Source: a virus. From it: 64,000 bases of DNA. Positions 55,087 through 63,050 of the stretch are shown piece after piece. The notes under the pieces are model-generated. The model saw nothing but the letters and a program-made list of their open reading frames with translations, did no database searches and was not told the origin of the DNA. Numbering within the stretch: the first letter of the stretch is position 1; each line of letters starts with the position of its first letter. The stretch lies in the IMG/VR virus record IMGVR_UViG_3300021963_000063, positions 32,731 through 96,730 of that record. The stretch is one strand, 5' to 3'. A program made the position numbers and the translations under genes.

Positions 55087-55287
55087 ATGGAAAATGACAT
55101 GAATGAAAATCAGGGAACAGTAAACTACATTATGCTAGGGCGAATATATGATCTTCTTGTCCTATTATGTGATGCACAAGGAAAATCCGAGGATGTTCTA
55201 AAATTGATGGAATTACACAGACAAGGACATTTAATGAGTCCCTTGCCATCTCTAGCTGCATATGAAAAAGAAAATAGCCCAGAGTAA
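55087..55287 (+). CDS. Hypothetical protein
   Basis: TGATATGAT-N7-ATG at 55087. Confidence 0.55.
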   Translation: MENDMNENQGTVNYIMLGRIYDLLVLLCDAQGKSEDVLKLMELHRQGHLMSPLPSLAAYEKENSPE

Positions 55288-55301
55288 ATAACTCTAGGCT
55301 A
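55275..55301. terminator. Hairpin between convergent genes
   Basis: TAGCCCAGAGT-aaata-ACTCTAGGCTA. Confidence 0.55.
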
Positions 55302-55314
55302 AATTCCTTATATG

Positions 55315-55749
55315 TTATTTTTTAGGTTTACCTTCCGAAAAATTAGTAATTTCAATTTCTCTAGGCTTTAATTCATCTGGCACATTACGCTTTAAGCCAA
55401 TTACCAAGATTCCATCTTGCATATGGGCATCTGTAACATAAATATGTTCTGCCAGAGAGAAAGATCTTGTAAACTTTCTACCTGCGATTCCTCGATATAC
55501 ATAGTTTTCTGAATCTTCTGGTTTTACACCCTCAACTGTGAGAGTACCGTTTTCTTCAGTAATTTTTAGCATTGACTTATTATATCCAGCAATAGCTAGA
55601 TCAATTGCATATGTGTCTTCGTTGATTTGTCTTACGTTATATGGTGGAAATGCTGTCGCATTTGTCTTTGATAGATCATTAAATCTATCTAGTACCTTAT
55701 CCCAACCAATAAAGAATGGGTCATTTGCCCATGTTAGTGTTCCGTTCAT
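55315..55749 (-). CDS. Small heat-shock protein Hsp20
   Basis: FPPYNV, LAIAG, YRGIAGRKFTRSF, DGIL. Confidence 0.93.
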   Translation of the reverse strand: MNGTLTWANDPFFIGWDKVLDRFNDLSKTNATAFPPYNVRQINEDTYAIDLAIAGYNKSMLKITEENGTLTVEGVKPEDSENYVYRGIAGRKFTRSFSLAEHIYVTDAHMQDGILVIGLKRNVPDELKPREIEITNFSEGKPKK

Positions 55750-55755
55750 TTTTTG

Positions 55756-55800
55756 CTCCTTTTAAGCGAGTTAATTTACATCCCCATAAGGCAGATGCAT
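55756..55800 (-). ncRNA. ROSE-like 5'UTR of hsp20
   Basis: CUCGCU pairs the AGGAG SD with a bulged G; a second hairpin lies upstream. Confidence 0.55.
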
Positions 55801-55818
55801 ATATAAATTATAACATTT

Positions 55819-55868
55819 TGTTATTTTAATGTTATCATTTTGTTATCTAAATGTTATCTATTTGTTAA
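55819..55868. repeat. Five TGTTAW repeats at exact 11-bp period
   Basis: Starts at 55819, 55830, 55841, 55852, 55863. Confidence 0.85.
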
Positions 55869-55871
55869 ATA

Positions 55872-56297
55872 TTAAGATAAAGTATCCATGTTGAGCTTAT
55901 GATACTGATTTCTGATCATATCCTCAAAATTTTCTTTATTTGTTCCATATCGTAAGTTATCTAGATGATTGTTATTCTTTACATCATCCCAATGACAAAT
56001 TACCATTCCTTGTTCTGGATAACCCACAAAAGTTTGCATAACTAGAACATGTCCTCTGATGTTTTTTCTGTACCTTTCCTTAGAGTGCATTAGATATTGA
56101 ATATACCCACTCTTATCAGGTCTACCCGAAATTATTGTAGGTTCACTTACTAGCTCTCTATAACCAGATCCATTTCCATAGCCATAACGATTACGATATG
56201 ATCTAACTCTTCCCAAATTAGATACCTCGTATCCATAAGGTTCAAATGTTCCGTTTTTTTGTTTAATAGGCACTACTGCCTTCCATATTTCATTCAT
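55872..56297 (-). CDS. NUMOD4-HNH homing endonuclease
   Basis: EIWK...YEVSNLGRVRS; CHWDDVKNNNHLDNL; leaderless TGCTATTAT-N6-ATG at 56297. Confidence 0.88.
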   Translation of the reverse strand: MNEIWKAVVPIKQKNGTFEPYGYEVSNLGRVRSYRNRYGYGNGSGYRELVSEPTIISGRPDKSGYIQYLMHSKERYRKNIRGHVLVMQTFVGYPEQGMVICHWDDVKNNNHLDNLRYGTNKENFEDMIRNQYHKLNMDTLS

Positions 56298-56551
56298 ATG
56301 AGAATAATAGCACACTATTTATTATATTTAAATAGCACACTACATATTGATCAGAATGTGAATGTGATTTTAACTTGTATAGTACACGTTTTTAAAAACA
56401 ATAAAAAAATCAACTAGTGCGACCATAAGACACAATAGCTGACCTTTTATTTTAGTTTTAGTTTTTTTTAGTTTATTTTTTTTCTTATCTTGTAGTGGAA
56501 ATAATTCCTAGAATAATTAAAGTTGCAAGTATCGCAAAAGTTTCTAGCATC

Positions 56552-56740
56552 TTATCCGTCTATCATCTCGCATACTAACGCACCTATGCCAGATACTAAG
56601 CCAATAATAAAAGTAACTAGCATAACTGTTGGTGTCATACCGTCTAAGCCAATGACTAGCAATTGCAATTCAAGCAATAGGGCAGGTAATGAGAATACCG
56701 CAATAAAGGTTAGGGGAGCGATTAGGTTATAGATAAACAT
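56552..56740 (-). CDS. Small two-TM membrane protein
   Basis: Hydrophobic; follows 56743..56853. Confidence 0.55.
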   Translation of the reverse strand: MFIYNLIAPLTFIAVFSLPALLLELQLLVIGLDGMTPTVMLVTFIIGLVSGIGALVCEMIDG

Positions 56741-56742
56741 TC

Positions 56743-56853
56743 TTAGTCCTCACACATAATGCATAGTTGGGATTCGATTTCAAACGGTGCTAACTTGTCA
56801 CCGCACACTAGGCAAGTAGCCTTAGTGATTTGTTCTAGTGCTAATTCAGTCAT
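56743..56853 (-). CDS. 36-aa CxxC micro-protein
   Basis: MTELALEQITKATCLVCGD...CIMCED*; GAAAGG SD. Confidence 0.7.
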   Translation of the reverse strand: MTELALEQITKATCLVCGDKLAPFEIESQLCIMCED

Positions 56854-56873
56854 TGAACTAACCTTTCGTTTGT

Positions 56874-56911
56874 GTTAAGGTTTATTTGCTCTTTCGAGGC
56901 TCACCCTTAAC
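56874..56911 (-). ncRNA. 5'UTR RNA motif, copy 1
   Basis: GUUAAGG-GUGAGCCU-CGAAAG-AGCAAAUAAA-CCUUAAC. Confidence 0.6.
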
Positions 56912-56925
56912 TTTCTTATACTCTT

Positions 56926-56947
56926 AGTATGGCATAGGGGTATGACA
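56926..56947 (-). promoter_or_regulatory. PafBC/RecA-NDp-type promoter (variant)
   Basis: TGTCAT-ACCCCTATGC-CATACT. Confidence 0.65.
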
Positions 56948-57005
56948 ATTTCTGCCCTATTTTGGGCGTGTCGCATAATTATTTTTGTGATGTACACCAC
57001 ACTAC

Positions 57006-57134
57006 TTATACACAACCTTATACACATATGTGTATAACCTGTGGATAACCGCCTCGGGCATTTTTTCAGCCATTTGTCAATACGACACACCGTAAATCTC
57101 ACTGGAATTTTATCTGTGGATAACCTGTGGATTA
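57006..57134. promoter_or_regulatory. DnaA-box cluster 1
   Basis: TTATNCACA or its reverse at 57006, 57018, 57029, 57040, 57115; one mismatch at 57126. Confidence 0.8.
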
Positions 57135-57136
57135 TT

Positions 57137-57154
57137 GTTCACCTAATGTTCACC
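57137..57154 (+). promoter_or_regulatory. PHO-box-like direct repeat
   Basis: GTTCACC-taat-GTTCACC. Confidence 0.55.
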
Positions 57155-57232
57155 TAAACACACCCCTAAAACACCTAAAATTGTCAGCCCCCCCTGATAC
57201 GCTGAAAGCATAGAAAGAAAGGAGTGATTCAA

Positions 57233-57343
57233 ATGAAAAACTTACTAATCGTGGCTAAGTGCCAATGTTGTGAGGACAACTACCGTCTAGAAGAATTAGA
57301 TTCTGACGGTTACTGTTCAGGTTGTATCGAATACACCCTCTAA
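57233..57343 (+). CDS. 36-aa Cys-rich micro-protein
   Basis: MKNLLIVAKCQCCED...YCSGC; AAGGAG SD. Confidence 0.7.
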   Translation: MKNLLIVAKCQCCEDNYRLEELDSDGYCSGCIEYTL

Positions 57344-57400
57344 AACTGTCAGACCTATCTGATAGACTCAAACTACTAAACAAAAAGAAAGAGGTCACAA

Positions 57401-57586
57401 ATGACTTACTTAGTAACAAATAAGAGAGACGGTATCTCTAACGAATACATCTCTATTCATTCTGCCTTGCAAATGGTTGCAAGTTGCTATGACGGTGCAG
57501 GTATCACTTGCGAAATCGTCAATACAGAAACAGGGGAACAGGTAGAAATCTACCGCAACCCACTAACAGGTTGGAAGGTGGCTTAA
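57401..57586 (+). CDS. Hypothetical early protein
   Basis: ORF track; SD and promoter upstream. Confidence 0.7.
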   Translation: MTYLVTNKRDGISNEYISIHSALQMVASCYDGAGITCEIVNTETGEQVEIYRNPLTGWKVA

Positions 57587-57745
57587 ATGGCTTACACTAA
57601 ATTAAAGAATGCATCACTACTAGTAGATGCTATGAAACAATTGGAAGATGCGAAAGCAACTGCCCTAGAATTTCCTGCACACCAAAGAATGGTGGACTAT
57701 TGGGAAAATCAAATTCAAATCTTGACTAAGCGTGTCTACAGGTAA
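57587..57745 (+). CDS. Hypothetical early protein (52 aa)
   Basis: MAYTKLKNAS...; GAAGGTG SD. Confidence 0.65.
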   Translation: MAYTKLKNASLLVDAMKQLEDAKATALEFPAHQRMVDYWENQIQILTKRVYR

Positions 57746-57803
57746 AACTGTCAGACCCCTATGCTAGAATCAAACTACTAAACAAAAAAGAAAGGTGGTC
57801 ACA

Positions 57804-58019
57804 ATGACTACACTAAACACAAGAGAATTCATAGATTCTTACAATGCACTAAACAAGGCTAAGCACCCACTTAGCCACACCTCAAGTTCTGGCTATGTTG
57901 CATTAGCAACAATTCTAGAAATCTCAATTAACTGGAAACAGGGTATCAAGCAGATACAAGATACGCTAGATGAAAAATCTGCACAATGGAAAAACGAATT
58001 AGAAAGTTTGGTGAAATAA
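57804..58019 (+). CDS. Hypothetical early protein
   Basis: ATG 57804 after AAGGTGG. Confidence 0.7.
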   Translation: MTTLNTREFIDSYNALNKAKHPLSHTSSSGYVALATILEISINWKQGIKQIQDTLDEKSAQWKNELESLVK

Positions 58020-58020
58020 A

Positions 58021-58188
58021 ATGATGACACGCAAAGACTATGTAGCAGTCGCAGAAATTCTAAACTCTTACCACTTGGAAATTGAAGCACAAACTTTTGA
58101 GGATTTGCTTTCAGACTTCCAAACATTTTTCAAAAGAGATAATTCTAATTTTGACTTAACACGATTCAGAGATGCGGTGATGAAATAA
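58021..58188 (+). CDS. Hypothetical early protein (55 aa)
   Basis: MMTRKDYVAVAEIL...NSNFDLTRFRDAV. Confidence 0.7.
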   Translation: MMTRKDYVAVAEILNSYHLEIEAQTFEDLLSDFQTFFKRDNSNFDLTRFRDAVMK

Positions 58189-58332
58189 TGAATAGTTTTT
58201 ATTCTTGGATTTTAATTTTATCTTTAGCAAGTTTAGTTTTTTTAATCGGACAGGAAAAATAAAATGGAAATGTTTTTAGTTTTTATTTTTGGTCTGATCG
58301 CATTGGGAGTAATTTCAAAATACACAGACTAA
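58188..58332 (+). CDS. Two single-TM micropeptides (58188-58262, 58264-58332)
   Basis: MNSFYSWILILSLASLVFLIGQEK and MEMFLVFIFGLIALGVISKYTD; coupled stops and starts. Confidence 0.55.
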
Positions 58333-58393
58333 AAAAAATCCAAAGCTTCTGGGCGTGTTGACTTGACATTCCCAGAAATTTTGGCTCGGGGCG

Positions 58394-58468
58394 TTTTCCA
58401 CAACTTATCCACAGCTGTTAAGAACCTGTGTATAACTCACGGGAATTCTGGGGATAACCTGTGTATAA
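58394..58468. promoter_or_regulatory. DnaA-box cluster 2
   Basis: Perfect boxes at 58405, 58427, 58460; one mismatch at 58394 and 58449. Confidence 0.75.
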
Positions 58469-58471
58469 AAA

Positions 58472-58489
58472 GTTTACCAAATGTTTACC
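58472..58489 (+). promoter_or_regulatory. PHO-box-like direct repeat
   Basis: GTTTACC-aaat-GTTTACC. Confidence 0.5.
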
Positions 58490-58554
58490 TTAGACACGCT
58501 TAAAAGTCCCAAAATTGTCAGACCCCTCTGCTAAAGTGAAACTATAAATAAATA

Positions 58555-58612
58555 GTTAAGTATGAGCCTAGCAAATAAACCGCAAGGGTGAGCCTAGCAA
58601 ATAAGACTTAAC
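58555..58612 (+). ncRNA. 5'UTR RNA motif, twofold-symmetric double copy
   Basis: GUUAAGU...ACUUAAC encloses 2x UGAGCCUAGCAAAUAA joined by ACC-GCAA-GGG. Confidence 0.65.
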
Positions 58613-58632
58613 ACTAACGAAAGGAATACAAA

Positions 58633-58818
58633 ATGTATTCACTAACTATCGAAGAACTATTGGTGGGTCAGCGTTACACCTCTAGTCGTGGATTCGCTGG
58701 AGAAATTATCACTGCTGAAAAGCGTGAAGATACTATGAGCGATAGTGCTTATCTAATCTATGTCCGTCAAGACGGATTCCCTTACTACTTCTATTCAACA
58801 GTTGAGGTGACTGCATAA
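58633..58818 (+). CDS. Small beta-rich early protein
   Basis: ORF track; GAAAGGA SD. Confidence 0.7.
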   Translation: MYSLTIEELLVGQRYTSSRGFAGEIITAEKREDTMSDSAYLIYVRQDGFPYYFYSTVEVTA

Positions 58819-58973
58819 TGAATGAATTTATTTGTTGTTTTTGTGAAACAGAAATGAGTGAAGAACAAATTATTTGTTGCGACACTTACAAGGGTAAAAT
58901 GTCTTTGAAAGATTTTGAAGAAATTTATGGTTACACCTTAGTAACTCTTGACTACCAATACGAGGATTGCTAA
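58818..58973 (+). CDS. Acidic Cys-rich micro-protein (51 aa)
   Basis: MNEFICCFCETE...; TAATG coupling. Confidence 0.65.
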   Translation: MNEFICCFCETEMSEEQIICCDTYKGKMSLKDFEEIYGYTLVTLDYQYEDC

Positions 58974-59165
58974 ATGGGTTATGTAGAAATTTTTGAAATG
59001 AATTCCAATGGTGCAGGTTGGACAAATTTAGATGACCTGCCCGTTGGTGATGTAATCGAAATGCAATTTGAACTTTCAACTAATCCTAGCGTTCAATTGC
59101 TCTGTGCCTTTTGCCTTGTGCCAATTCCTAGTGGCTCAGGTAACGCCTGTGGAAAACATAAATAG
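58974..59165 (+). CDS. Hypothetical protein with C-terminal CxxC...CxxH
   Basis: ORF track. Confidence 0.65.
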   Translation: MGYVEIFEMNSNGAGWTNLDDLPVGDVIEMQFELSTNPSVQLLCAFCLVPIPSGSGNACGKHK

Positions 59166-59199
59166 TTATCCACAAGAGCTATCCACAGCCTGTGGATAA
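59166..59199. promoter_or_regulatory. DnaA-box cluster 3
   Basis: TTATCCACA 59166, CTATCCACA 59179, TGTGGATAA 59191. Confidence 0.75.
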
Positions 59200-59322
59200 C
59201 CGCCCGAGCACATTTTTATCCTGGTGTCAATTACGACATTACTAAAAAATCACGAGAATCACAGGAAAAATGTCAGACCCTTATGCTAGTATCAGAGATA
59301 CCTACTAAGAAATGAGCACTAC

Positions 59323-59856
59323 ATGACATACGCAACTCTATACCGCAACATTGCTAAGACCGCAACACCTGCACAAATTGAACAAGCCACGCAATGGTAT
59401 GCAGATGCAGAATTACTTGCTAGTGATCTAATCAGAATTTATCAGTCAAGAGGAATTAATCTAACACTAGAACATACCGCTAGTATCATTTCATCATTCT
59501 CACCTCGTCAGCGTTGGAATCGTAACGTAGTGCAAGCATTAGAATTTGCTCATGGAGGTGAGCCAAAAGGCTTAGGCAATAATCTACGCATGGCAAAACA
59601 ATCACAAGAAATTGGTTTCGATGCACTTAAGGGACTAAAGACAAATGCATTCGCTCGTGCAATTGCTGGCGATGATGATGCTATAACAATTGATGTGTGG
59701 ATGTGTTATGCAGCAGGACTAGATACCAATGCACCTAACAAAACACAATACAGAGAATTATCTGAGGCTGTAAGAATTGTTGCAAGCGAAATGAAAATGA
59801 CACCTAGAGTTATGCAAGCCCTGATCTGGATTATCTACAGGGGCAGTGCAGCTTGA
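59323..59856 (+). CDS. Helical protein resembling the HhH-GPD DNA glycosylase fold
   Basis: SPRQRW, GLKTNAF, ITIDVWM, MQALIW pattern. Confidence 0.5.
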   Translation: MTYATLYRNIAKTATPAQIEQATQWYADAELLASDLIRIYQSRGINLTLEHTASIISSFSPRQRWNRNVVQALEFAHGGEPKGLGNNLRMAKQSQEIGFDALKGLKTNAFARAIAGDDDAITIDVWMCYAAGLDTNAPNKTQYRELSEAVRIVASEMKMTPRVMQALIWIIYRGSAA

Positions 59857-59990
59857 CAGAGCCACCGAAAGGTGCTCGGGGCTTCCAGCTCCTTACCTAA
59901 TTACGACATTACTAATAACTCACAGGAATCACTGGAAAATGTCAGTGGTCTATGCTAAGATGATTTCATCATCAACCGAAAGGGTTTTCA

Positions 59991-60143
59991 ATGAAAACTT
60001 CAGTTCCAGATTTCGTTTCAGATTTCCAAGTTCAGTTTGAAGAGTGGGTTATGTCAATCCACGAAGACCTATGCACCTGTCAGGCTTGTGACCCAGAGTT
60101 TCACATGGAGTTGCTTGAAGAGTGGGAAGGTATGGTGTGGTAA
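59991..60143 (+). CDS. Acidic micro-protein (50 aa) with CxCxxC
   Basis: MKTSVPDFVSDF...; GAAAGG SD. Confidence 0.65.
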   Translation: MKTSVPDFVSDFQVQFEEWVMSIHEDLCTCQACDPEFHMELLEEWEGMVW

Positions 60144-60155
60144 AGGGCTCGGGGC

Positions 60156-60171
60156 TGTGACCTATCTCACA
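60156..60171. promoter_or_regulatory. CRP/GlxR-type site
   Basis: TGTGA-cctatc-TCACA. Confidence 0.6.
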
Positions 60172-60260
60172 TTTACGATTAAGTGAAATATCACGAAGAT
60201 CACGAGAATTGTCAGACCCCTGTGCTATGCTATGAGCATACCTACAGAAATGGAAATGCT

Positions 60261-60512
60261 ATGTTTACACTAAACAAAATTACTAAGAATGAAGAACTAA
60301 ACTATTTTGTATCTTCACACCCTTGCCCAAATTGCGATAGCACTTTATCAGTTGAGATTACTCCTGATAAGTTGTACGCATACAACCAAGGGGCTTATGC
60401 CCAAGATGTATTGTCTGCCTATGATGCAGGTGTGCGTGAGCGTTTCATTAGTGGAATGTGTGAAATTTGTTGGGGACTAATGTTTGACTTTGACGATGAT
60501 GATGAGGAATAA
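60261..60512 (+). CDS. Zinc-ribbon protein with acidic tail
   Basis: CPNC...RERFISGMCEICW; start downstream of promoter 60210. Confidence 0.7.
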   Translation: MFTLNKITKNEELNYFVSSHPCPNCDSTLSVEITPDKLYAYNQGAYAQDVLSAYDAGVRERFISGMCEICWGLMFDFDDDDEE

Positions 60513-60543
60513 AATTGTCAGACCTCTCTGATAAGGTATACCT

Positions 60544-60681
60544 ATGAATTACAAAACACCAGACCACCCTGAACGCTTGAGGGCTAGACTTGAACTACGC
60601 AGGTCAAGTGCCTCACAACCACACAAGTCCAAAAAGGCTTACACACGCAAGACCAAACACAAGAACCTACAAGGAGAATAA
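60544..60681 (+). CDS. Basic 45-aa leaderless protein (ArfA-like C-terminal motif)
   Basis: TAAGGT-N6-ATG; ...LELRRSSASQPHKSKKAYTRKTKHK. Confidence 0.65.
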   Translation: MNYKTPDHPERLRARLELRRSSASQPHKSKKAYTRKTKHKNLQGE

Positions 60682-60682
60682 A

Positions 60683-60979
60683 ATGGGAAGAAACTTCGCA
60701 ACAGAATTATCCGCTATGGATACTATGCCACTTGAGCAACAGATTAACTTGCACTTGCAATACAACTTCTATCCACCTGTACCGTCCTCAATGGTACAAC
60801 CTTGCATTGAAGCAATTGACGCTTATTGGGACGAGGACATTTATCGTGAAATAGAAATGCCATTAGGAGTTTCTTATCGTGGTAGTGATACTGCACCTGC
60901 TCACGCTATCGTTGAACAACACCGCTTAGATTCCTGGCTAAGCGAACTAGATGACTACTATGAAGATGAAGAGGTTTAA
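60683..60979 (+). CDS. Acidic hypothetical protein
   Basis: AAGGAG SD; start MGRNFA. Confidence 0.7.
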   Translation: MGRNFATELSAMDTMPLEQQINLHLQYNFYPPVPSSMVQPCIEAIDAYWDEDIYREIEMPLGVSYRGSDTAPAHAIVEQHRLDSWLSELDDYYEDEEV

Positions 60980-60981
60980 TT

Positions 60982-61188
60982 ATGTGGCAACTACAAGCAA
61001 ACTGTGATGAAACAAATACAGAACTATTCTTTAGCAAACTAGAAAGTAAAGTTGCTAAAGCAAAAGCCCTATGTGGCAGTTGTGCAGTTGCAGACAAGTG
61101 TTTGCAATTTGCATTAGATACAGAAATTGAATTTGGTATTTTTGGTGGAGTCACCGCAGACGAAAGGAAAGCACTTGTTTCAAACTAA
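60982..61188 (+). CDS. whiB: WhiB-family Fe-S transcription factor
   Basis: C...CxxC-x5-C and GIFGG turn. Confidence 0.9.
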   Translation: MWQLQANCDETNTELFFSKLESKVAKAKALCGSCAVADKCLQFALDTEIEFGIFGGVTADERKALVSN

Positions 61189-61366
61189 CTTAGTAGTGAA
61201 CTTTACCAATGGTGAAAGTAAAACTTATTTAGATGTTCACCCTGACCAAAGTTTCTTTATCCATAATGAGATGCTTACATTAGAAACGCTAAACGGTGAG
61301 ATGATTTGGTACATACCTGCCGTATCTGTAATTGACTACTACACAGAATGCGTGAGGGTTTCATAA
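61175..61366 (+). CDS. Hypothetical protein
   Basis: TTG start after GAAAGGA. Confidence 0.55.
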   Translation: MFQTNLVVNFTNGESKTYLDVHPDQSFFIHNEMLTLETLNGEMIWYIPAVSVIDYYTECVRVS

Positions 61367-61511
61367 CTTGACAAAAGCTCCGAAAGGGGCTCGGGGGGAT
61401 TTTTTTTGAAATGTCAATTACGACACGCTCAAAAACTCACTGAAAAAAACACTAGAAATTGTCAGACCCTTGTGGTAATGTATACACATAACCTACTAAG
61501 AAAGAGAAAAA

Positions 61512-61643
61512 ATGACAGACCAGCAACTTGTAGATAAAATTGTTGATTTATTTGATGCAGTCATTGACGAGAGTGCATTGGATAGATTATCAGAAGAAGA
61601 ACTAAAAGCAATTGACAAAATACTAACGGAAGCAGGTTACTAA
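61512..61643 (+). CDS. Acidic helical micro-protein (43 aa)
   Basis: MTDQQLVDKIVDLFD... Confidence 0.65.
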   Translation: MTDQQLVDKIVDLFDAVIDESALDRLSEEELKAIDKILTEAGY

Positions 61644-61644
61644 A

Positions 61645-61983
61645 ATGGGTGCAAGAATTAATTTCGTATTTGATGACGGAACAGATAGCCTAGTTAATCT
61701 TTATTCACATTGGGGTGAGACTGATTGGGAAAATGATTTAATAGGTGCATTGATACACGCACAGAAACGCAAAGGTGACTATTCATACTTTACTCGTATG
61801 GTTATCTCACACCTAATTAAAGACTATGTTTTAGATGAAACTGGTTTTGGTATCTATGCAATTAACCGTTCAGAAATTGCTAACAATTTTGATAAGACAG
61901 TTGTATTAGATTTAGTAAATAACACATTGACAGATTTAGACAATGATAAGACAGTTGAACTATATGGAAAGGTATTTGCATAA
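61645..61983 (+). CDS. Phage hypothetical protein
   Basis: MGAR...LYSHWG motif. Confidence 0.7.
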   Translation: MGARINFVFDDGTDSLVNLYSHWGETDWENDLIGALIHAQKRKGDYSYFTRMVISHLIKDYVLDETGFGIYAINRSEIANNFDKTVVLDLVNNTLTDLDNDKTVELYGKVFA

Positions 61984-62132
61984 TGGCAAAGATGAAAACA
62001 ATTGAAATGATTCTAATGGAAAACCACCCTGATGGAATTTACAATGAAGATGATGTATGGGAAGCAATTGCAGAAGCAAATGGCATGGACTATTCAGAAA
62101 TAGCAGACGGAGATTTAGCAGAATGGCTATAA
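61983..62132 (+). CDS. Highly acidic micro-protein (49 aa)
   Basis: MAKMKTIE...EDDVWEAIAEANGMDYSEIADGDLAEWL. Confidence 0.65.
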   Translation: MAKMKTIEMILMENHPDGIYNEDDVWEAIAEANGMDYSEIADGDLAEWL

Positions 62133-62254
62133 AACTATTTAATAAGAAACCAGAACTAATCGAAGATACATTTACTAAGTTAGATAGACTAATGAGTGAA
62201 ATGGCATCTACTGACATCTACATCGAATACCTTGAATTAAGGGAGGGTATGTAA
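62123..62254 (+). CDS. Hypothetical micro-protein
   Basis: MAIKLFNKK...; GGAG SD. Confidence 0.55.
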   Translation: MAIKLFNKKPELIEDTFTKLDRLMSEMASTDIYIEYLELREGM

Positions 62255-62459
62255 TGGCATTTGGTATCCTAATGGTATTGACTGTATACTCATTTATTGT
62301 TATGATAATGCTATACACAGACAAAGTTGAAAGCGAATGGGATAGTCAATAATGGAAATATTTTTTGGGGCAATTGGTCTGCTAATATTGTTTGGAGTGC
62401 TTATGTCTAATGGCAAGGGTACACCACACGATGAGGAAGATGGTTGGTATGATTACTGA
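62254..62459 (+). CDS. Two single-TM micropeptides (62254-62352, 62352-62459)
   Basis: MAFGILMVLTVYSFIVMIMLY... and MEIFFGAIGLLILFGVLM...; TAATG couplings. Confidence 0.6.
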
Positions 62460-62664
62460 GTATAAAGAAATAGATCAACTAATTGGAATGACTATTGAGC
62501 CAGGTGATATGGTAAAGCTGCCTAATGGTGATATTGTAAATATCATTCGCACTGAACCCACCGCAACAGGCTATGATTTATTCTTCTTAGATTTGTTTGA
62601 AGATGAGGAACTGGTTTACAGTTTAGACGACAATGAAAAGGTAACACTCCTAGAATTTGACTAG
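62449..62664 (+). CDS. Small SH3-like acidic protein
   Basis: IEPGDMVKL pattern; start MITEYK. Confidence 0.6.
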   Translation: MITEYKEIDQLIGMTIEPGDMVKLPNGDIVNIIRTEPTATGYDLFFLDLFEDEELVYSLDDNEKVTLLEFD

Positions 62665-62710
62665 GGGTGCTGCCCCGAGCTCATAACTTGCCAAATGTCA
62701 AGTTACGATG

Positions 62711-62726
62711 TGTGATTTAAGTCACA
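62711..62726. promoter_or_regulatory. CRP/GlxR-type site
   Basis: TGTGA-tttaag-TCACA. Confidence 0.6.
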
Positions 62727-62811
62727 GGAAATTAGATGTAAAAAAGACTAGAAATTGTCAGACCTATCTGCTAAGATGTTAGCATAACAACAACATAGAA
62801 AAGAGAAGCAA

Positions 62812-62967
62812 ATGGATAAAATCCAAACACCAACTGTTGGCTCACAGTTCACGACTGCTAAGTCAGGCGTAACAGGAACAGTTCAGGAAGTAATCAAAAA
62901 TACTACTGGCTCACTCCGTATTCGTCTTGATGTAAATGGTCAAGACCGTTGGACTACTGTAAAGTAG
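62812..62967 (+). CDS. Small beta-barrel-like protein (51 aa)
   Basis: MDKIQTPTVGSQFTTAKSGVTG...DRWTTVK. Confidence 0.7.
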   Translation: MDKIQTPTVGSQFTTAKSGVTGTVQEVIKNTTGSLRIRLDVNGQDRWTTVK

Positions 62968-63050
62968 TTTTAGTTATGGGGTCTGGCAAAACTGTCAGAC
63001 CCCTATGCTAAGATTATTTTAATAAACTACCTACAAATAAGGAGACCCAA

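Follow-up and report, generated by a model that had tools for sequence, protein, structure and literature searches.

A modular internal-loop RNA motif in the predicted early leaders of uncultured phages

Two predicted early leaders, one leftward and one rightward, in the window (the whole 64-kb stretch of viral DNA analysed here) carry a real, modular RNA motif whose transcription rests on predicted promoters. The unit is an asymmetric internal loop in which 5'-UGAGC-3' lies opposite 5'-CAAAUAA-3'. As a rule, a C-G pair closes the loop on one side; on the other side, an A.G, G.A or A.A juxtaposition or a single pyrimidine is followed by a helix of any sequence. Units occur singly, as a two-fold pair with a helix of 4-5 bp between them, or stacked two or three deep. 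That the motif is a structured RNA is well supported; it has no described family and, among the phages searched, is so far confined to uncultured ones. The WhiB gene and the PafBC-type early promoters point to actinobacterial hosts, probably of low GC.

Results

Two elements built from the same loop

The leftward leader contains a single module (copy 1), closed by an outer stem and capped by a GNRA hairpin. Its features are as follows.

56911-56874, minus strand: copy 1, one-module (monomer) element (sequence and RNAfold minimum free energy, MFE, structure)
56911-56905 with 56880-56874, minus strand: outer stem, GUUAAGG paired with CCUUAAC (sequence, MFE fold)
56904 with 56881, minus strand: purine pair G/A (sequence, MFE fold)
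56903-56899, minus strand: 5' loop strand UGAGC (sequence)
56898-56889, minus strand: apical hairpin CUC-GAAA-GAG, capping the module (sequence, MFE fold)
56888-56882, minus strand: 3' loop strand CAAAUAA (sequence)
56947-56926, minus strand: putative leader promoter TGTCAT-N10-CATACT with PafBC-consensus spacing (sequence, promoter scan)
56870-56862, minus strand: ribosome-binding site (RBS) AACGAAAGG (sequence)
56743-56870, minus strand: this RBS together with the first leftward ORF (36 aa, CxxC...CxxC)

The rightward leader contains two modules related by a pseudo-two-fold axis (copy 2).

58555-58612, plus strand: copy 2, two-module pseudo-two-fold dimer (sequence and RNAfold MFE structure)
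58555-58561 with 58606-58612, plus strand: outer stem, GUUAAGU paired with ACUUAAC
58563-58578, plus strand: repeat 1, UGAGC (58563-58567), CUAG and CAAAUAA (58572-58578)
58589-58604, plus strand: repeat 2, UGAGC (58589-58593), CUAG and CAAAUAA (58598-58604)
58568-58571 with 58594-58597, plus strand: central helix, CUAG paired with CUAG
58580-58587, plus strand: apical hairpin CC-GCAA-GG
Plus strand, next to the repeats: linker nucleotides, an A before and an A after repeat 1, a G before and a G after repeat 2
58516-58537, plus strand: putative leader promoter TGTCAG-N10-TAAAGT (sequence, promoter scan)
58616-58624, plus strand: RBS AACGAAAGG (sequence)
58633-58818, plus strand: first ORF after copy 2 (61 aa), a predicted SH3/KOW/Tudor-like beta-barrel

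Pairing of the two repeats through CUAG produces the same loop twice with the strand order reversed: the outer module is made of the UGAGC of repeat 1 and the CAAAUAA of repeat 2, and the inner, permuted module of the UGAGC of repeat 2 and the CAAAUAA of repeat 1. A first-pass annotation had described the stem and loop-strand layout of copy 1, the CUAG pairing and permuted double loop of copy 2, and a GNRA tetraloop in each; sequence and MFE folds confirm all three, the tetraloops being GAAA and GCAA. By RNAfold, copy 1 has an energy z-score of -2.6 and copy 2 one of just -0.37, no better than shuffles, so thermodynamics alone is insufficient for the claim.

Occurrence in the window and in databases

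The 16-mer TGAGCCTAGCAAATAA occurs exactly twice in the 64 kb, both times within copy 2. A covariance model built from relatives matches two sites in the window, copy 2 (70 bits, E 5e-18) and copy 1 (26.7 bits, E 3e-5), with the next-best match at E 0.12, and it again yields just these two copies in the whole 96.7-kb record.

The absence of an assignable known family, noted at first pass, was borne out by Rfam 15: cmscan (E-value mode) over positions 55500-60000 of the window returned four chance-level matches located elsewhere (E 2.8-9.8), and none at E<=1 in 10 related loci with monomer, dimer and nested forms. No papers came up in a full-text search of the literature for the 16-mer and for its core. 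Among GenBank phages there was no real match to the 4-kb region by megablast or to the 58-nt element by blastn, a query length of limited sensitivity. A pattern scan of bacterial genomes gave chance single matches only, among the matches listed, and a model search of 151 genomes of the order Nanopelagicales (the order of a Planktophila MAG) did not find the motif, returning three weak non-motif matches. An exact-pattern scan of IMG/VR matched at least 119 contigs.

Module anatomy and architectures in relatives

The IMG/VR matches were parsed into at least 75 distinct structured elements (about 75 among the matches listed), comprising monomers, two-fold dimers, two stacked modules and a nested three-module form. 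With F for the UGAGC strand and T for the CAAAUAA strand, the architectures among the matches listed are FT (14), FTFT (50), FFTT (4) and FFTFTT (4). UGAGC is present in 136 of the 138 modules parsed from these matches and CAAAUAA in 119 of 138, with CGAAUAA (12) and CAAGUAA (3) as variants. The helix between two-fold modules is 4 or 5 bp without exception among the matches listed.

The helices around the loop are variable. At the position of the copy 1 apical hairpin, relatives have CUA/UAG, CUGU/ACAG, CUUA/UAAG or CUCUA/UAGAG. Apical loops vary likewise (GAAA, GCAA, hexaloops and others), and roughly 48% of caps are GNRA, a figure that includes GAAA loops misregistered by the parser as CGAAA or GAAAG. 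One copy each is present in five relatives (83-108 kb; completeness 92-100% in four); some contigs have 3-4 elements, each with its own promoter.

Covariation of the helices

All helices covary in the relatives while the loop strands are nearly invariant. In 48 dimers, 88% of cells are paired (64.3 +/- 1.3 in shuffles) and 161 cells are changed on both sides (55 +/- 7 in shuffles); 12 of 16 pairs covary, with slid controls at 24-48%. RNAalifold independently recovers the same three helices. The flanking purine pair also covaries (A.G 48, G.A 35, A.A 5, G.G 0; Fisher 1.6e-19, on counts that are not phylogenetically independent). Counts of G.U versus A.C separate neither the strand nor RNA from single-stranded DNA, and mismatches lie mostly at stem ends or reflect alignment offsets.

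The direct repeats of a dimer differ from each other in a complementary way, as in CUUAG/CUAAG and CUGAG/CUCAG and, in further variant dimers, CUAC/GUAG, CUAU/AUAG and CUAAU/AUUAG. Such differences are found in 23 of 71 unique dimers (exact-pattern loci, among the matches listed). These compensatory differences rule out iterons and double-stranded operators. A double-stranded DNA site of that kind, with origin iterons or repressor operators on the direct repeat TGAGCCTAGCAAATAA, has next to no chance of being correct: two identical 16-bp direct repeats do lie near DnaA boxes and beside promoters, but the repeats of relatives diverge complementarily rather than staying identical, as copies read in duplex form by one protein would, the repeat tolerates both nesting and interruption by an inserted hairpin (as in copy 1), and the flanking inverted repeats covary without sequence conservation.

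The proposal that a loop conserved under permutation marks a genuine RNA module is well served by the relatives, in which the loop occurs in monomer, permuted-dimer, stacked and nested forms and each flanking helix shows compensatory changes; the phage-contig search suggested alongside it supplied these relatives, from which the covariance model was built. A reading of the repeat as a mini-ORF (R-UG as AUG or GUG, with UGA, UAG and UAA in the repeat) was rejected, as there is no properly spaced Shine-Dalgarno sequence and it is RNA pairing that covaries, not codons.

Position behind early promoters

The PafBC promoter consensus is tGTCgg(N10)tA(N3)T (PMC8635444), and the early promoters of this phage clade have its spacing and motif. 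Both window elements sit between a TGTCAG/TGTCAT-N10-TAnnnT promoter and a AACGAAAGG RBS, as first annotated, and transcription is predicted to start near 56920 for the leftward leader and near 58544 for the rightward one. For 59 of 64 unique multi-module elements, the 80 nt upstream contain a promoter-like site on the sense strand; on the antisense strand the number is 6. The motif starts 26-40 nt past the extended -10. Its place just after predicted promoters would put it about 10-30 nt into a few early transcripts. This sense-strand placement 3' of predicted promoters agrees with the earlier expectation that the element lies downstream of the transcription start, the starts being predicted ones. 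Some of the promoters ahead of elements are canonical sigmaA-type and others PafBC-type.

What follows on the 3' side varies: either an RBS 24-68 nt away or, at 10-12 nt, a second promoter. One class has a consensus TTGACT-N17-TATACT promoter, then the element and, directly after it, a second promoter serving the gene, an arrangement that suggests a role for the RNA itself. The genes 3' of elements are diverse small early ORFs, and the motif is therefore tied to the leader and not to any single gene. The barrel ORF after copy 2 belongs to a family present in 40 of 62 related loci and has a confident AlphaFold model (pLDDT 93). As an RNA-binding partner it was not retained, its fold matches being generic small barrels (best Z 5.5). 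Further features around the two leaders are the following.

57006-57134 and 58394-58468: DnaA-box clusters adjoining the two divergently oriented copies
59148-59199: third DnaA-box cluster, ahead of a promoter without an element
55301-55275: strong terminator downstream of copy 1
61378-61396: terminator downstream of copy 2
60544-60681: Arg/Lys-rich early ORF (45 aa)

The 45-aa protein has weak PHROG relatives from cultured phages, a group in which the search for the element found none. At 100-200 nt upstream of elements, DnaA-box-like sites are enriched, with 33 and 17 in the 50-nt bins over a background of 2.75, and about 35-40% of dimers have at least one. Terminators of the hairpin-plus-U-tract type are not enriched downstream, at 0.09/kb on the same strand versus 0.21/kb antisense over 163 kb, in a scan blind to actinobacterial and Rho-dependent terminators; such an excess would have favoured antitermination, which the first-pass annotation had listed as an option beside protein binding and a decoy.

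Discussion

The best reading of the element, to which we give a chance somewhat short of even, is a protein-recognition module on early transcripts. Generic RNA recognition modules typically behave as this loop does, which is reused with its strands in either order and one to three times per element, and this argues for a specific binding partner. On this view, every loop would dock a single subunit of a protein acting in trans, which may come from the host or be a small early protein of the phage. The U1A polyadenylation-inhibition element and the LicT/SacY RAT have two asymmetric internal loops in pseudo-two-fold arrangement with a short helix between them, and each loop binds one protein subunit. 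The element resembles them in its two similar pseudo-two-fold loops and the short helix between, and by analogy the dimer form may bind a protein dimer or two cooperating monomers. It differs in that sequences and organisms are unrelated, in that its module also occurs alone, in same-orientation stacks and in three layers, and, from RAT, in that it does not overlap a terminator. Binding might mark these transcripts, or the leader could be an abundant early RNA that recruits or titrates the factor; the effect downstream could be on elongation, stability or translation, or that of a decoy.

Other small asymmetric loops, such as the kink-turn, loop E/sarcin-ricin and UAA/GAN motifs, can likewise be inserted between any helices in either strand order. 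The three-A bulge, with U.A and A.G pairs possible beside it, resembles a kink-turn, but the tandem sheared G.A pairs of the standard form need GA on both strands and the CAAAUAA strand has no G (119 of 138 modules), which leaves room for no more than a non-standard U.A/A.G arrangement. The signature of UAA/GAN, a motif otherwise defined by its non-canonical pairs and AAA stack, is present (UAA in CAAAUAA, GAG in UGAGC), as compared by sequence alone. The 11-nt receptor of the GAAA tetraloop (CCUAAG and UAUGG) is not matched, CCUAAG arising only where the variable central helix is CUAAG.

Lambda nut and HK022 put are also structured cis-acting RNAs just past phage early promoters, in leftward and rightward leaders and often with GNRA-type loops, and a small Arg/Lys-rich early protein exists here too (60544-60681). 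Unlike nut, the element has no boxA, and GCUCUU is absent from its predicted 5' tails, which in the window read AUAAAUAAAUA and AUAAGAAA and in relatives (A)UAACAAUUAAAUAAG; conservation lies in the internal loop and not in an apical loop of boxB type, the kind recognised by the arginine-rich N peptide. A factor-independent action on RNA polymerase, in which the nascent leader hairpin confers resistance to pausing and termination, including Rho-dependent termination, as put does, seems to us quite unlikely. It would suit an element that is formed early, within tens of nucleotides of the predicted transcript start, in front of early gene blocks, and that in the window does so in both directions. 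Genomes with at least 10 early promoters have no more than 1-4 copies, conserved early genes are found as far as 6 kb downstream on that same strand, and terminators lie beyond both copy 1 and copy 2. However, the terminator counts given above show no downstream excess, setting the element apart from both nut and put, and most early genes have their own promoters. Put itself consists of two adjacent stem-loops and has no sequence or architectural similarity to the element, which is one coaxial hairpin with 1-3 internal loops, and the variable number of modules is better suited to multiple binding sites than to a single polymerase contact.

RNase III sites are found in T7 early mRNAs and the lambda N leader, and phage examples with conserved internal loops are known. 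A role in mRNA stability or processing, as a block to 5'-end-dependent RNase E/J or as an RNase III site, is consistent with that precedent and with a long coaxial hairpin close to the predicted 5' end, and the T7 sites are likewise phage-specific hairpins with conserved internal loops on early transcripts. We nevertheless judge it quite improbable, since such a role has no need for 12 nearly invariant loop nucleotides where the helices have fully diverged, and since a single-stranded 5' tail of about 10-25 nt would be left before the hairpin. The T7 sites, moreover, are intergenic and define 3' ends, whereas the element is located 5' and keeps its 12 loop nucleotides across very diverged phages.

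The enrichment of DnaA-box-like sites upstream, with clusters adjoining both window copies, raises the question of a link to a replication origin, either as a primer or activator transcript or as a single-stranded DNA hairpin that a primase or primosome would recognise, as in the case of the RSF1010 and G4 ssi signals. The low copy number fits such a role, and a DNA hairpin is also compatible with the stem covariation. This link is very doubtful: about 60% of elements have no nearby DnaA box, the third cluster (59148-59199) precedes a promoter without an element, some contigs have 3-4 elements with a separate promoter each, and the tight, oriented coupling to promoters and the proportion of GNRA caps suit RNA better.

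A riboswitch-like sensor, with each internal loop a pocket for a small molecule or ion, is highly unlikely in spite of the highly conserved loop nucleotides, the 5' UTR location and the tandem aptamers known among other riboswitches. We saw no conserved expression platform, be it a terminator or an SD-sequestering helix, and no conserved alternative pairing, and the RBS or promoter that follows lies at a variable distance; the outer stems are free to vary, the modules number one to three and include a circular permutation, and no host copies were found in the genomes searched. Activation of PafBC by the leader RNA is also rated low because PafBC is reported to be activated by single-stranded DNA but not by a 12-nt single-stranded RNA (PMC11804915).

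Returning to the protein-recognition module, a broader and unlikely proposal sees in the UGAGC/CAAAUAA loop a portable module not known before, of a kind comparable to the kink-turn or boxB, through which RNA is recognised by a protein (or by RNA polymerase). Uncultured low-GC actinobacterial phages of a large clade would carry it on the transcripts they make first and so seize control of transcription in the host. The module might load a small phage protein, with the clade-specific SH3/KOW-like barrel after copy 2 and the Arg/Lys-rich 45-aa protein as candidates, or else it might capture a host factor.

The anatomy of the motif is unusual: with one small internal loop as the unit, elements are assembled from one, two or three copies, and the strands may come in either order. 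The partner, once identified, would reveal by what means the earliest transcripts of these phages are controlled, in hosts for which almost no phage gene regulation is known, and the motif could serve as a compact orthogonal RNA tag in Actinobacteria.

Structure of the two copies

Both elements are built from an internal loop in which a UGAGC strand (F) faces a CAAAUAA strand (T); copy 1 holds one such module and copy 2 holds two. Their sequence readings, and the promoters assigned to them by motif match, are as follows:

56911-56874, minus: copy 1, GUUAAGG-G-UGAGC-CUC-GAAA-GAG-CAAAUAA-A-CCUUAAC
56947-56926, minus: promoter of copy 1, TGTCAT-N10-CATACT
58555-58612, plus: copy 2, GUUAAGU-A-UGAGC-CUAG-CAAAUAA-A-CC-GCAA-GG-G-UGAGC-CUAG-CAAAUAA-G-ACUUAAC
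58516-58537, plus: promoter of copy 2, TGTCAG-N10-TAAAGT

The predicted -10 lies 15 nt before copy 1 and 18 nt before copy 2, and each copy is followed by AACGAAAGG and then an ATG (56853, minus, and 58633, plus, respectively). The first-pass annotation had described the pair as a circularly permuted internal loop and is right in all details of both copies; RNAfold gives structures identical to its folds, and the exact 16-mer UGAGC-CUAG-CAAAUAA is confined in the 64 kb to the two repeats of copy 2. The folding energies are modest for copy 1 (z -2.6) and unremarkable for copy 2 (z -0.37).

The base preceding UGAGC is mostly A or G, here (58562-58604) and in all related elements, giving AUG or GUG. 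The stop triplets UGA, UAG and UAA all occur within the 16-mer, and copy 2 contains a 9-codon frame that opens at the AUG at 58562 and stops at the second repeat's UGA. We judge these triplets to be a by-product of the RNA constraints.

A modular family in related phages

The pattern TGAGCCT-N0-10-AGCAAATAA matched at least 119 IMG/VR contigs. Most of the matches listed are structured elements with the same promoter context, and some single matches are due to chance. Parsing the loop strands as tokens, with flanking helices required, yielded 76 unique elements among these matches.

Architectures of the 76 elements parsed among the matches listed
Monomers (FT): 14
Two-fold dimers (FTFT): 50
Same-orientation stacked pairs (FFTT): 4
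Nested three-module forms (FFTFTT): 4
Short TF pairs: 4

Among the same matches, UGAGC is conserved in 136 of 138 modules and CAAAUAA in 119 of 138, with the variants CGAAUAA (12) and CAAGUAA (3). On its outer-stem side the loop carries either a purine-purine juxtaposition or one extra pyrimidine. The flanking purine pair covaries (A.G 48, G.A 35, A.A 5, G.G 0; Fisher 1.6e-19, from counts that are not phylogenetically independent). A covariance model (R1) finds two copies in this genome, the same number in the window as in the whole 96.7-kb record, while five relatives of 83-108 kb have one apiece (CheckV completeness 76-100%); a few contigs carry three or four elements.

Covariation of the helices

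The fold and its conservation can be regarded as secure with high confidence. In an alignment of 48 different dimers, 88% of the cells in the three-helix structure are paired, against 64.3 +/- 1.3 in shuffles, and 161 cells have changes on both sides, against 55 +/- 7. Double changes occur in 12 of 16 pairs, pairing falls to 24-48% in a control with the partners slid, and unguided RNAalifold recovers all three helices (outer, central and apical). Most informative is the central helix, in which the two direct repeats pair together. Besides CUAG/CUAG, we found CUUAG/CUAAG (12), CUAAG/CUUAG (8), CUGAG/CUCAG (3), and CUAC/GUAG, CUAU/AUAG and CUAAU/AUUAG. An exhaustive IMG/VR scan for dimers with a base other than C after the first UGAGC gave 91 stretches; just two were real dimers, both compensatory (GUAG/CUAC and AUAG/CUAU). 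Monomer caps covary as well (CUC/GAG, CUA/UAG, CUGU/ACAG, CUUA/UAAG, CUCUA/UAGAG). The same loop thus recurs modularly in relatives with covarying helices, which bears out the earlier proposal of a true RNA module.

That proposal could not assign the element to a known family; the window region and 10 related loci have no Rfam match, and a full-text literature search did not find the 16-mer or the core. A nut site has boxA and a conserved apical loop, whereas here boxA is absent and conservation lies outside the apical loop, so the element does not qualify as a nut site. The lack of a G in the 3' strand, CAAAUAA, excludes a standard kink-turn. At the sequence level, the loop strands contain the UAA/GAN signature. 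No copies were found among the host genomes searched, including 151 of the order Nanopelagicales.

Promoters, genes and host

A same-strand promoter match (extended -10, PafBC-type or -35/-10) lies within 80 nt upstream of 59 of the 64 unique multi-module elements, and an antisense-side match near only six. The distance from the extended -10 to the first loop strand is 26-40 nt, which would place the start of the hairpin ~10-30 nt along the RNA, counted from predicted transcription starts. Under a strict definition, 25 of 609 promoter-like sites in related loci, a small minority, carry the element. The first genes 3' of elements are many unrelated small ORFs; conserved early genes follow on the same strand at a distance of 0.2-6 kb.

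A set of 24 dimers has TGTGA-N6-TCACA as apical hairpin (L001, L003, L013, L020, L025 and ~20 other related IMG/VR loci; L248, 14887-15035). All 24 have a TGTCAG promoter on the 3' side, at 28 nt in 23 and 29 nt in one, independent of central-helix length; a nearby TGTCAG match occurs in only one of 30 other dimers, at 1-nt spacing. The apical sequence is thus shown to be free enough that it can also act as a palindromic DNA site; the palindrome is CRP/GlxR-like, and one sequence appears to serve both as RNA hairpin and as DNA site for the next promoter. At most of these loci a canonical TTGACT-N17-TATACT promoter precedes the element; the RNA is thus predicted to be made from a housekeeping-type promoter and to run into a second promoter, the gene's own, which is of the PafBC type. 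This arrangement suggests that the RNA itself is valuable.

The window is the final 64 kb of the 96.7-kb record and has a G+C content of 36%. Its minus-strand genes encode portal, capsid, protease, ribonucleotide reductase and large tail proteins. The plus-strand block of small early genes contains at least nine copies of TGTCAG-N10-TAnnnT, and the early region 56926-63014 has ten. Their spacing is that of the mycobacterial PafBC consensus, tGTCgg(N10)tA(N3)T (PMC8635444). Related contigs (L099, L248 and most related loci) have several hundred promoter-like matches, mostly of the TGTCAG-N10-TAnnnT type; some read TGTCAGTGG, as in mycobacteria. Other features of the region are:

55275-55301, minus: terminator-like hairpin (11 pairs and a U tract), the strongest of the region, after the next two genes
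55315-55749: Hsp20-family gene, downstream of copy 1
55872-56315: HNH endonuclease gene, downstream of copy 1
60982-61188: WhiB-family transcription factor gene (Pfam 3e-21)

The WhiB gene and weak protein matches to Streptomyces phages point to an actinobacterial host; we found no close relative among GenBank phages.

Possible functions

Our leading reading, held tentatively at somewhat below even odds, is that the internal loops may form a protein-recognition module on early transcripts. Two proteins are candidate RNA partners:

58633-58818, plus: 61-aa ORF after copy 2
60544-60681: Arg/Lys-rich 45-aa ORF, core ELRRSNAA...KKKYTRK

The first is a member of a clade-specific family that 40 of 62 related loci encode, often as two paralogues; neither Pfam nor PHROG gave a match for it. 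AlphaFold confidently predicts an SH3/KOW/Tudor-like beta-barrel (pLDDT 93), whose fold matches (Spt5 KOW, EF-P, UvrD Tudor, CdnL) have Z of at most 5.5, a level usual for small barrels. Of 62 related loci, 30 conserve the 45-aa ORF. Its sole matches, all weak, are to DUF7230 and to PHROG families of unknown function; the PHROG relatives come from cultured phages, among which the element was not found.

The element could instead act directly on RNA polymerase or be a stability or processing signal, both unlikely and about equally so. Antitermination loses its simplest support because canonical terminators are not enriched downstream (0.09/kb same strand versus 0.21/kb antisense, in a scan to which Rho-dependent sites are invisible).

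Slightly less probable still is an origin-linked role, as hairpin or primer. In related contigs, the stretch 100-200 nt upstream of elements is enriched in DnaA-box-like sites, which ~35-40% of dimers have. The window contains 44 such sites when up to one mismatch is allowed, where 22.6 +/- 4.6 would be expected, and the 9-mers cluster at ~11 nt spacing:

57006-57134 and 58394-58468: clusters flanking the two divergent copies
59148-59199: cluster preceding a promoter without an element

However, most elements lack DnaA boxes, and a leader RNA agrees better with the multi-copy contigs and the strict coupling to promoters. A riboswitch is very improbable, as no conserved expression platform was found around the elements. 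Iterons or operators in duplex DNA are scarcely credible, because the repeats differ in a complementary way and duplex sites for one protein would stay identical. Other roles would take up the remaining probability.

The element represents a new family of structured RNAs built from a portable internal loop as the unit. A phage early programme driven by PafBC-type promoters would be notable in itself.
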